From: an uncultured Lentisphaerota bacterium
GTDB taxonomy: Bacteria; Verrucomicrobiota; Kiritimatiellia; RFP12; UBA1067
DNA length: 64,000 nt
Assembly (NCBI GenBank): GCA_946413265.1
Contig: CAMKJU010000001.1
Span: 51,592-115,591 of the forward strand
Direction: 5' to 3'
The position numbers are program-made. Each line of letters begins with the position of its first letter. Position 1 is the first letter of the stretch. Shown here piece by piece: positions 36,001 to 39,000 of this stretch.

Positions 36001-39000
36001 TGATCGCGGACGCGCTCGCGAACCTCATGCTCGGCGAGGTGGAGCTTCCCTCCGGCGGCGAGCCGAGGGAGGTGCCGCCGGACTCGGTGGCGGGCCGCAT
36101 GGCGGCCGCGCGGCTCGCGGCGGCGGGCAAGGACGAAATCGGGCTTTCGCCCGCGTGGAGCGCGGGCCTCGGGAAAGGATGGAAGTGATGAAAGACAGAG
36201 TGCTTGGAGTGCTTTTCATGGCTGGCGTGTTCGCTCTTCTCGGCATGGGCGTGCGCGAGTACCTGATACACAACGGGAGGCTGACGAGCGACCTGAACGC
36301 GGACGGCCACTCGATAACGAACCTGCCGGACGGGTTCTTCCCGACGAACGGCTTCCTGCGGACGCACCAGGACATCAGCGGCAAGGCCGACAAGTCGGAC
36401 ACGTACACGAAGTCCGAGACGGACGCGAAGATCGTGGAGCTGTCGCCCGCGCCGGGGAACTATTCCGCAGTAAGCAACGCCGCGATGTCGGCCGCCGCAC
36501 AGACTAACGACTTTCTGCGTCTGTCGGGCGGAACGATGACCGGCTCCATAACTGTTGGCGGCGATGGCGCGTACGTGAGGCTGTCGAATCCGGCAAATTC
36601 GTTGACGCCGGGGTTCGAGGTCGTTGGCGCGTATTCTCACCTGAAGGTGTTTCCGTCGTACATTGAGCGATTGAACGAGGCCGGGAACACGTACTATTTC
36701 ACATTTCCGAACAGCAGCGGCCTTCTCGCTACTACGTCCGACATCGAAGAAGCTGTGCGTGGCATCGTAATTCCTGCCCCAGACCTTTCGGAGTACGCGA
36801 AGCTGTACACCGTCTCCGCGCTCGCGAACTTCGCGACGAACGTTGACGCGAAGGCCAGCACGGCAATCTCCTACTTGCAGGGCGACGACGCGAAGGTTGT
36901 AATCACGAACTACGACTCCAGCGTGTCGATGCCTTCCATGAGCTTCCAGCAGCGCATCGACGAGGGTGGCTCGAACTGGTGGAAGGTCGTGTGGAACGAG
37001 CTGACGCGCTGGGAATGGCTCACGGGCACTTACCTGCCTGCGAACTACTACGGCAAGTCGCAGATAGATGTGCTTCTCGACGAGAAGGCCGACAGGGCAT
37101 GGGGCTACTACGACAGCCACGGCGGCAACTACGCGCCGGACGGCTACACGTGGATAAGCAGCCCGAAGATCGCCATAGCGGCGGGGCTTGCCTACCAGCG
37201 CACGGTCACGAGCGGCGGCGCGATATGGGTGCTGGAGTCCAACGGCCTCGTCACGGAGACCGGCGGAAACCTGACAAACGGCTTCTTCCGCGTGTCTGAC
37301 GACGAGGGCAACTCGCTCCTGGAGATAGTCAAGGGCAACAAGCGCACCATCGGCGCGAACGCCGAGCAGCCGGCTGTGAGTAACATCATGGGCGTCACGC
37401 ACATGTACATCAGGTACTCCGTCGTGAGCGAGTCGCACCCGACGCTGAACATCTGCACGGCGCTCGAACTCGGCGACTGGCACGACGAGACCTCCGCAGA
37501 CTGCGCGGCCAACGTGTCGTGGACCGGCTCTTCCGGCGCATACGTTGCGGAGGTGTGGGGCAAGACTGCGCTGACGCGCATGTTCGTCAAGGCGGAGTAC
37601 GAGGTCGGCGGCGAGACGTACATCAAGAACTCCGCGCCGATCTCCGCCGACGGCGGCATCTACTGCACAGACGGCATCCACAAGGTGAGGTTCGTGTACA
37701 ACAACGGCTCCGTAACGATGGAGGTCACGCCGTGAAGAGCGTCGTCGATGCGTTCCAGGTGTCCGTGATGATCGCGGGCGTGTCCGTCCTCGCGCTCTTC
37801 GCGCTTGGCTACTCGGCATACGCGCTGCGCGACTCGGCGGCGAGGCTGAAGAAGTGGGTCGGCTCGTCGGCGGCCGCCGCGCTCGTCGTTGTGTTCGCCG
37901 TGTTCTACGGCGGCGGAAAGGGCACGCGGCAGGTGAACTTCCCGCGCACGGACATGAGCGTTGCGTACCTCGTAGATGCAGGTTCCTACGTGACAAACGA
38001 CCTCGTACACGTCGCGTTCACGTCGTACCTGATTCCGCAGGACGCGCCGATCTTTCTCTCGTACTGGCCGGACGGCTCGACGAACGAGGAGGACATGGTG
38101 ACGGTCTACGAGGCCACGCTCGCCGATTTCCCGAACCAGCTTGACTTCGCCTTTGAGAACGCGATCTCGAACCGCTGGTACTGCTACACCACGTGGACGC
38201 CGGGCCCCGTAATCCACATGAACGGCGTCTGGCAGTCAACGTGGATGACCGACAGGATTGAAAACCGCTGCCTGATTCCGATCAGGACTACAATCGAGGT
38301 TGACGGCGAGACAATCGCCCCGCCGTCGCCAAACCCGAAAAAGAAGGAGGACGATGAAGATGAACAGTAGGACGTGCATCTGCGCTCTCGCGCTTGCGGC
38401 TGCGCTCGCGCCTTTTGTCGCCGTGCCGGACGGCACGAACGGCACAGAAGTGGTCGTTGAGACGCTATTCTCCGACGGATCCACGAACACATGGACGCGC
38501 CCGGAGCTTGTTGCCGCGTTGCAGCTCGTGAACAGGAAGTACCACCGCGACTGCGAGACCCCTTCCGGACGCCGTGCCTGGCACGGCGGGCTGAAGCTCC
38601 AGACTGTCGTGACGAACGGCACGACGCTCGTGAAGACCGAGACGCACGAGGACGGCCAGTCTTTCACGTTCACGGCTCCGTACGTTCCGCCTGCGGTCGC
38701 CGTGTCGAACTCGAACGCACGGCTGAAGACCACGCTCACGAAGGGCGTTCCGAAGGCGCTTGCCGAGGCGAGGCTTCGCCGCTTGCAGGAACAGCAGACC
38801 ACGAACACGGTTTCAGTGACGGTCAACGCAGGACAGGAGGCGCGCTAGATGGACGAGGTGACACGCGACATGGTGAAGGCGCAGCTGAAGTCCGCGAAGA
38901 CGGCGGATGCGCTGAACGACGCGATGGTGAGCGCGATGATCGCCGTCGTCGATTGCCAGTGCAAGACCGGCATGAGGGTGAAGAGGCAGGGGATGATACT

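Follow-up and report, generated by a model that had tools for sequence, protein, structure and literature searches.

Three consecutive late genes, here called g1, g2 and g3, follow the large terminase gene terL of a phage recovered with an uncultured Lentisphaerota bacterium, within a 64,000-nucleotide stretch of contig CAMKJU010000001.1 (positions 51,592 to 115,591; assembly GCA_946413265.1) that is referred to below as the window. We put at about even the chance that they form a self-contained, horizontally mobile module for a fibre made outside the cytoplasm, g1 being the fibre and g2 and g3 its dedicated partners. Co-conservation of the three genes, on which the preliminary description of this region had made its case depend, was found in nearly all loci: the C-terminal block of g1 is followed directly by g2 in 31 of the 32 loci examined by tblastn, and g3 comes after g2 wherever the sequence continues. 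The trio lies on at least four unrelated phage backbones, namely those with a T7-type portal and a GP7 capsid (loci L001 and L003), with an SU10-type capsid (L005), with a lambda-type portal and a ClpP protease (L006), and the type seen in the window, in which the block stands between terL and the portal gene (L007 and L018). In the contexts examined the module lies beside lysis-like genes and is exchanged together with them, and in relatives DUF1353 proteins are found beside it. These contexts are all phage or prophage, and the host homologues outside prophages that the preliminary description had suggested looking for were not seen among them. Because only 2 of 301 sampled genomes of the class carry the C-terminal block, we regard g1 as a sporadic phage gene and not as a host gene.

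Translation, hydropathy and the sequences at the gene junctions agree with what had first been described as to the coordinates, the coupling to terL, the fibre motifs and the hydrophobic N-termini of all three proteins. g1 (36188-37735, on the forward strand, like terL, g2-g6 and the tail fibre at 47584-49893) encodes a tail-fibre-like protein of 515 residues with an N-terminal hydrophobic segment; its ATG at 36188 has one A in common with the TGA stop of terL (36186-36188), and a purine-rich stretch lies just upstream. g2 (37732-38370; 212 residues, two N-terminal membrane helices) starts at a GTG at 37732 that overlaps the end of g1 (37735) as GTGA, while the ATG of g3 (38354-38848; 164 residues, a predicted signal peptide and a small alpha/beta domain), at 38354, has AAGGAGG ahead of it and overlaps g2 by 17 nucleotides. 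The next gene, g4, begins with an ATG at 38849, immediately after the stop of g3. A promoter and terminator scan revealed a promoter-like site ahead of the small terminase gene terS only, near 33.7 kb, where the late operon apparently begins, and detected none belonging to g1-g3 themselves. In the translation of g1, the motifs HQDISGKAD, TYTKSETD and LSGGTMTG occupy residues 60-68, 72-79 and 112-119, respectively.

Four parts can be told apart in g1. Residues 1-21 (36188-36250), consisting of MKDR and VLGVLFMAGVFALLGMG, form by hydropathy a Sec-type signal or anchor, with G-x-G standing before VREYL; residues 22-56 (36251-36355) form a short N-box (REYLIHNGRLTSDLNADGHSITNLPDGFFPTNGF) that DNA alignment links to the phage backbone; residues 57-194 (36356-36769) are a central segment that can be swapped and in which the fibre motifs and a small beta domain, as predicted, are located; and residues 195-515 (36770-37735) make up the conserved C-terminal block, with a coiled coil, a neck (residues 300-390) and a predicted beta-sandwich head (residues 391-470). 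Short matches to tail-fibre motifs in PHROGs cover residues 61-94 and are present in relatives as well, and AlphaFold2 (AF2) places strands at residues 144-172. The AF2 monomer has a mean predicted local distance difference test score (pLDDT) of 57, but of 82-94 for residues 390-470. Across the family the mean identity of the C-terminal block is 69% in the neck, its most conserved part, and 43% in the head, and 35 positions are invariant in an alignment of 80 sequences. The alignments thus correct one point of the preliminary description, which had dwelt on the N-terminal part: the portion of the fibre that is conserved is the C-terminal 320 residues, and not the N-terminus.

The boundaries of these parts coincide with breaks in DNA similarity. 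In blastn comparisons, the two relatives with the same backbone, L018 and L007, align with the window throughout except at 36355-36782 and 36328-36870, respectively, i.e., in the middle of g1; with L039, whose identity is 95-99% on either side, the sole piece that cannot be aligned is 36440-36784, corresponding to residues 85-199. The opposite pattern is given by L003, whose backbone is unrelated and which has a single similar DNA block in the whole genome, 36770-40117 (87.8% identity), running from residue 195 of g1 to just beyond g6, the third gene after the trio, while the DNA in common with L001 is limited to 36821-38790, from the C-terminal block of g1 to g3. The N-box aligns at the DNA level with L018 and L007 only, where it is contiguous with terL, and in the family as a whole the N-terminal types of g1 follow the family of the upstream gene. 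Read from the sequence, the arrangement matches receptor-binding fibres and tailspikes, and an explanation that has nothing to do with fibre biology would fit such a mosaic design poorly. The replacement of the central domain between nearly identical genomes suggests that this part follows a variable target, for which a structure on the host surface comes to mind first, and the domain is likely to be a specificity determinant of these phages.

Hydrophobic segments, called by Kyte-Doolittle hydropathy and heuristics of our own rather than by a trained signal-peptide predictor, were found at residues 3-24 of g1, 3-32 and 41-62 of g2, and 5-27 of g3. Among 252 members of the g1 family examined, the segment is N-terminal in 192 (with a net charge of +1 or +2 in the n-region in 171 of them) and internal, after an extension of 20-210 residues, in 48, so that a Sec-type segment is kept in 240 (about 95%); most of the 11 members that lack it are apparent truncated gene calls that start just past the signal site. 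All three regions of a signal peptide are also present in the internal versions, where a basic stretch is accompanied by a core of Ala/Leu and by an AXA site. A loosely defined -3/-1 cleavage site is present in 182 of 191 members, and many relatives carry textbook-like cleavable signals, such as ASASAFA-ANV, AAHG-ASV and LTASA-KTF (hyphens mark the candidate cut). Family-wide, the signal region is 55% identical and the first 40 mature residues 62%; in matched bins the figures are 57% versus 73% and 66% versus 83%, and between close relatives the signal, judged by eye, diverges faster than the residues that follow it. A later start codon that would leave the hydrophobic segment untranslated, which the preliminary description had named as one way in which its reading could fail, is unlikely, because the segment with its basic n-region is kept in about 95% of these members and abuts or overlaps the upstream stop codon in most relatives.

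In the window and its two same-backbone relatives, G-x-G stands ahead of the conserved VREYLIHNG, for which reason we consider cleavage just as probable as permanent anchoring; the g1 signal may be cleavable, and an anchor of the signal-anchor-release (SAR) type is possible. Without exception, the g2 relatives carry membrane helices at their N-termini and the g3 relatives signal peptides. Two cysteines of the g1 head, Cys439 and Cys493, occur together in 52 sequences, are both absent from 7 and are discordant in 5, a pattern that weakly fits folding outside the cytoplasm. The envelope of Kiritimatiella is of the standard Gram-negative kind (PMC5148204). Taken with the coupling to terL, the signals support the view of g1, g2 and g3 as putative envelope-targeted late proteins. 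In this general form the preliminary description stands; the more particular roles that it had offered, namely surface display, a receptor decoy or part of an unconventional exit pathway, were not established.

The two partner genes encode new protein families. g2 consists of two N-terminal membrane helices, a strongly basic loop between them (in every version read), a conserved domain of about 150 residues and an acidic tail; by the positive-inside rule, the basic loop would place the conserved domain in the periplasm. It is 64% identical to its neighbour-gene counterpart in L001, has 94 unnamed relatives, none with a Pfam domain, and among these its soluble domain is 49% identical, compared with 19% for the membrane region. 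g3 has 134 unnamed relatives with 17 invariant residues, including Y63, H64, R65, W76, H77 and D100, which look like a binding or catalytic site. Its AF2 model is confident (mean pLDDT 81, and above 89 for residues 30-120) and follows the order beta-beta-alpha-alpha-beta-beta-beta-alpha-alpha, with no significant fold neighbour in the PDB (best E 0.09). Profile-profile comparison found g2 and g3 unrelated to g1, and covariation of g2 and g3 with particular sub-regions of g1 was not discriminating. As with fibre chaperones, both genes lie directly 3' of the fibre gene and are co-inherited with its C-terminal part (the 31 of 32 loci above).

The g1 family is large. A word-indexed search returned 404 relatives, and an exhaustive profile search at least 922 clusters at 50% identity (357 with an E value below 1e-30); the few that bear a name in their source are called 'hypothetical protein'. 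In all 922 clusters the conserved block of about 320 residues is C-terminal, and the variable N-terminal part, made of fibre-type repeats, ranges in length between about 110 and 680 residues. In L001, L008 and L009 a collagen-like connector of 203-210 residues is encoded directly upstream and ends in an amphipathic helix (...LIFEALGGTV); the stop codons of these connector genes (L001:9372-10004, L008:4007-4618 and L009:6856-7467) overlap the start of the signal-bearing fibre gene. Connector and g1-type protein are fused in one chain in around 19% of the family, or about one member in five. In L003, the N-domain of the fused fibre and that of an ordinary fibre encoded nearby (413 residues, no hydrophobic segment) have 46% identity, and this common domain connects g1 with fibre biology. 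A resemblance of such N-domains of fused forms to BppU_N was not confirmed by Pfam. Likewise set aside was the idea of g1 as a decoy that shares a domain with the phage's own fibre, given that g1 has nothing in common with the remainder of the genome and that such sharing was seen in L003 only.

Searches for named relatives were negative. Neither the C-terminal block of g1 nor g2 or g3 was assigned to a family by Pfam, PHROGs, NCBIfam or PADLOC; tblastn of the three proteins against GenBank phages and profile searches against PDB sequences gave no matches; and Foldseek of the g1 model against the PDB and BFVD returned insignificant matches only. No lysozyme, amidase, peptidase or transglycosylase family was found in the three proteins by Pfam and NCBIfam, and no exclusion or defence family by PADLOC, Pfam and NCBIfam. 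Neither did our literature search find a report of signal-bearing tail fibres in tailed phages. An exported cassette of a fibre and its partners has no described counterpart in tailed phages, and what it does we infer from the features above.

The module adjoins a lysis-like trio, g4-g6 (38849-40064), which is often exchanged together with the C-terminal block of g1, g2 and g3. g4 encodes 82 residues with a C-terminal membrane helix, g5 a protein of 146 residues and g6 a lipoprotein of 142 residues. g5 (39199-39639) is not recognised as DUF1353 by Pfam and is weakly similar to DUF1353 proteins that occupy the same position in relatives (e.g., L001:12735-13181); DUF1353 has recently been shown to be a phospholipase A2 family (PMC11525133).

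With the co-conservation, mosaic boundaries, gene structure and signal sequences as observations, the following course of export, assembly and fate can be proposed. g1 would be exported by the Sec pathway, its signal probably being cut after G-x-G, and its chains would trimerise in the periplasm, beginning at the conserved C-terminal block. g2, held in the inner membrane by its two-helix hairpin with its domain in the periplasm, and g3, soluble in the periplasm, would serve that block as dedicated assembly or holding factors, a role parallel to that of the Tfa or gp38-type chaperones of cytoplasmic fibres. The finished fibre would then carry a short backbone-specific N-box, a swappable centre that sets specificity, and the conserved C-terminal block. 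In holin-endolysin-spanin lysis the outer membrane breaks later than the inner one is opened, and in the meantime particles from the cytoplasm can come together with fibres from the periplasm. We tentatively suggest that, once a holin-like g4 opens the inner membrane, periplasm and cell contents would mix inside the still intact outer membrane and the fibre would join finished particles before the outer membrane breaks, docking on the tail via its N-box as a second receptor-binding fibre. Attachment during lysis is the single most likely fate, though we hold it with limited confidence, and a fibre that stays off the virion and acts on the envelope is almost as likely.

Several points weigh against this proposal. 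We know of no tailed phage that adds exported fibres to its particles, and the export of all three proteins is a prediction drawn from their sequences. The tail module encodes a separate fibre without a signal, so g1 is not the sole candidate for a receptor-binding protein. The place of the module beside lysis-like genes, with which it is exchanged, would fit a role on the envelope as well; the monomer model of g1 is poor; the conserved end of g1 is the C-terminal one, the reverse of most receptor-binding fibres; and no chaperone family was matched by g2 or g3 in Pfam, PHROGs, NCBIfam, PDB sequence profiles or Foldseek.

Among other explanations, the one with the most in its favour, while still improbable in our estimate, is that the fibre never joins the virion and instead, with g2 and g3 holding it, attaches from the cell surface or the periplasm to the phage's own receptor or to some other structure of the envelope, so that progeny or rival phages are not wasted on a dying cell or are kept from entering, in the manner of T5 Llp, P1 Sim and T4 Imm/Sp. 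All three proteins are extracytoplasmic by their signals, a virion fibre without a signal is encoded separately, and the swapping of the central domain between nearly identical phages is what would be expected of a protein that tracks a variable host structure; a two-helix membrane protein beside a periplasmic one also recalls T4 Imm/Sp. However, masking or exclusion of this kind sits uneasily with genes that lie inside the late structural operon, are coupled to terL, have no detected promoter of their own and match no exclusion or defence family. There is, moreover, no evident route for the fibre across the outer membrane and no domain in common between g1 and the phage's own fibre of 787 residues, and the backbone-linked N-box is left unexplained. 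We think rather less probable a part in lysis, in which the C-terminal block of g1, g2 or g3 would be the missing factor that degrades the wall or breaches the outer membrane; exported beforehand and then set free or activated by the firing of the holin, it would be comparable to a spanin or to an endolysin of the SAR or Sec-exported type. This role is kept alive by the lack of an endolysin recognised by Pfam in the genes scanned, which left out a giant polyvalent protein of 2,881 residues. It also accords with the neighbourhood of a small membrane protein, a DUF1353/phospholipase A2-like protein and a lipoprotein that are exchanged with the module as one block, with the varying position of this block within late operons, as is the case for lysis cassettes, and with the invariant polar and aromatic residues of g3, two histidines among them. 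Yet no catalytic fold or family was matched by the C-terminal block of g1, by g2 or by g3, and an enzyme acting on wall or membrane needs neither a mosaic shaft of 110-680 residues nor a central domain swapped between nearly identical phages. The N-terminal hydrophobic segment of g1 and the lipoprotein g6 would suit a spanin pair, but g1 has 515 residues, a length far beyond the spanin range, and is mosaic and probably cleaved.

The fused and split forms of the family raise the main alternative to export itself, in which the hydrophobic stretch would serve as a structural helix linking the fibre with a connector protein or the tail, and g1 would be a fibre of the ordinary kind, assembled in the cytoplasm. 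The amphipathic helix of the connectors in L001, L008 and L009 ends exactly where the hydrophobic stretch of the next gene starts, the two are fused elsewhere, and fused forms carry the N-domain held in common with a normal fibre. Nevertheless, the window phage and many others have no upstream connector, and the stretch drifts faster than its flanks; we rate this possibility as quite unlikely because the full anatomy of a signal peptide (basic n-region, short Ala/Leu core and AXA site) is kept and because the co-inherited g2 and g3 are themselves predicted membrane or secreted proteins.

In returning to the proposed module for a fibre made outside the cytoplasm, its closest parallels in organisation are the stf-tfa genes of lambda, H-G of P2, S-U of Mu and gp37-gp38/gp57A of T4, where, as in g1-g3, the 3' part of the fibre gene is inherited with small genes that follow it; in stf-tfa-type cassettes the recombination joint likewise lies inside the fibre gene, whose 5' part is backbone-specific. 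Unlike in those cassettes, g1, g2 and g3 all bear signals for export or the membrane, g2 and g3 have no sequence or fold similarity to Tfa or gp38, and the conserved block is large (320 residues) and common to very different phages. Endosialidases and the spikes of the T5 L-shaped fibres, which end in an intramolecular chaperone (Peptidase S74), have the same succession of a particle-linked N-terminus, a variable functional middle and a C-terminal module that is conserved among proteins otherwise unrelated, whereas g1 has no S74 match or SDxxxK-type motif and its helpers are apparently separate exported proteins. With tail fibres in general g1 has in common its repeat motifs and a mosaic design with a backbone-tied N-terminus, and it departs from them, as cytoplasmic proteins without an export signal, in the Sec-type segment of nearly all its relatives.

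Export of a fibre built from such modules has been described outside phages. The MAT fibres of Bdellovibrio are Sec-exported trimers of phage-tail-fibre-type modules (Caulton et al. 2024, PMC10769870) and, as is predicted for g1, present a Sec signal followed by a fibre outside the cytoplasm. They are set apart from g1 by their described architecture, being chromosomal, with a conserved N-terminal domain of about 130 residues and variable C-terminal tips; in g1 the polarity is reversed, with a variable N-terminus and a conserved C-terminal block, the genes are phage late genes, and two partner genes follow. Genes with Sec signals, to which no function is assigned and whose products may modify the envelope of the host, have also been noted in phages of gut and oral anaerobes, in a study of Porphyromonas gingivalis phages (Matrishin et al. 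2023, PMC10367356), but these encode a capsid protein, a spanin and proteins of unknown kind, with neither a fibre nor a conserved three-gene module among them. Envelope-acting phage proteins with signal, anchor or lipoprotein sequences (SAR endolysins, Rz/Rz1, T4 RI, T4 Imm/Sp, P1 Sim and T5 Llp) resemble g1-g3 in these sequences, and the module, like such lysis and exclusion proteins, adjoins lysis genes; none of them is a long mosaic fibre, and g1-g3 show no homology to them and no catalytic domain.

Particles of tailed phages are thought to be built entirely in the cytoplasm. If the g1 fibre does end up on virions, a part of tail assembly would occur outside it, in the periplasm; if it stays off them, it would be an envelope factor in the shape of a fibre, of a kind so far undescribed, for which exclusion, the masking of receptors and lysis are candidate roles. 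In both cases the swappable central domain is likely to determine specificity in these phages, whose rumen host lineage is abundant but uncultured. The very large unannotated family to which g1 belongs (the 922 or more clusters above) combines the design of a host-range fibre with export signals and with two exported partner families, one of which, g3, has a confidently predicted fold without a solved relative.

As for the setting of these genes, the window contains a circular phage genome of 50,933 bp, wrapped so that its first 200 bases reappear at 50,933; the wrapped parts are 1-13067 and 50934-64000. The corresponding contig of the host bin, C1 (124 kb), is a head-to-tail phage concatemer of about 2.4 copies and is therefore no evidence of phage integration. 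The order of the late operon is terS, terL, six small-to-medium genes, portal, scaffold, capsid and the tail module of a short-tailed phage. terL (34290-36188) was assigned by PHROG 2 (E 2e-17) and by tblastn terminase matches in 313 phage records, and the tail module includes an SU10-type adaptor (44697-45890; PF24175, E 8e-10). Read from its translation, the ordinary signal-less tail fibre (47584-49893; 769 residues) has three IPTEKAVREAI-type repeats and the GLMSAADKAKLNNL motif, together with two HGL(V/C)P...FL..(N/D)G motifs, and is without a family match in Pfam, PHROGs and NCBIfam. The related loci originate from genomes of Kiritimatiellae or Verrucomicrobia assembled from ruminant gut samples.

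Exported late proteins appear to be scattered through the structural operons of these phages. Separately, signal-bearing proteins of about 210 residues in L005 (7268-7900) and L001 (13178-13828), homologous by eye from their translations, differ in position: one of them is encoded after the capsid gene, and the other as the last member of the lysis-like block. The trio itself recurs in the same host genome, where a second prophage end (G000:C30:3643-13735, L036) carries a 27%-identical g1-g2-g3 set along with two further signal-bearing proteins of the tail region (732 and 396 residues), a tail-anchored coiled-coil protein, a lipoprotein and an integrase, with host genes coming next. On a contig of another assembled genome, the trio lies in a repeat unit of about 32.1 kb (G301:C3:24286-56430; L037 and L038, also L021 and L022), which also contains an integrase and, after the lysis-like genes, a signal-bearing protein of 882 residues.

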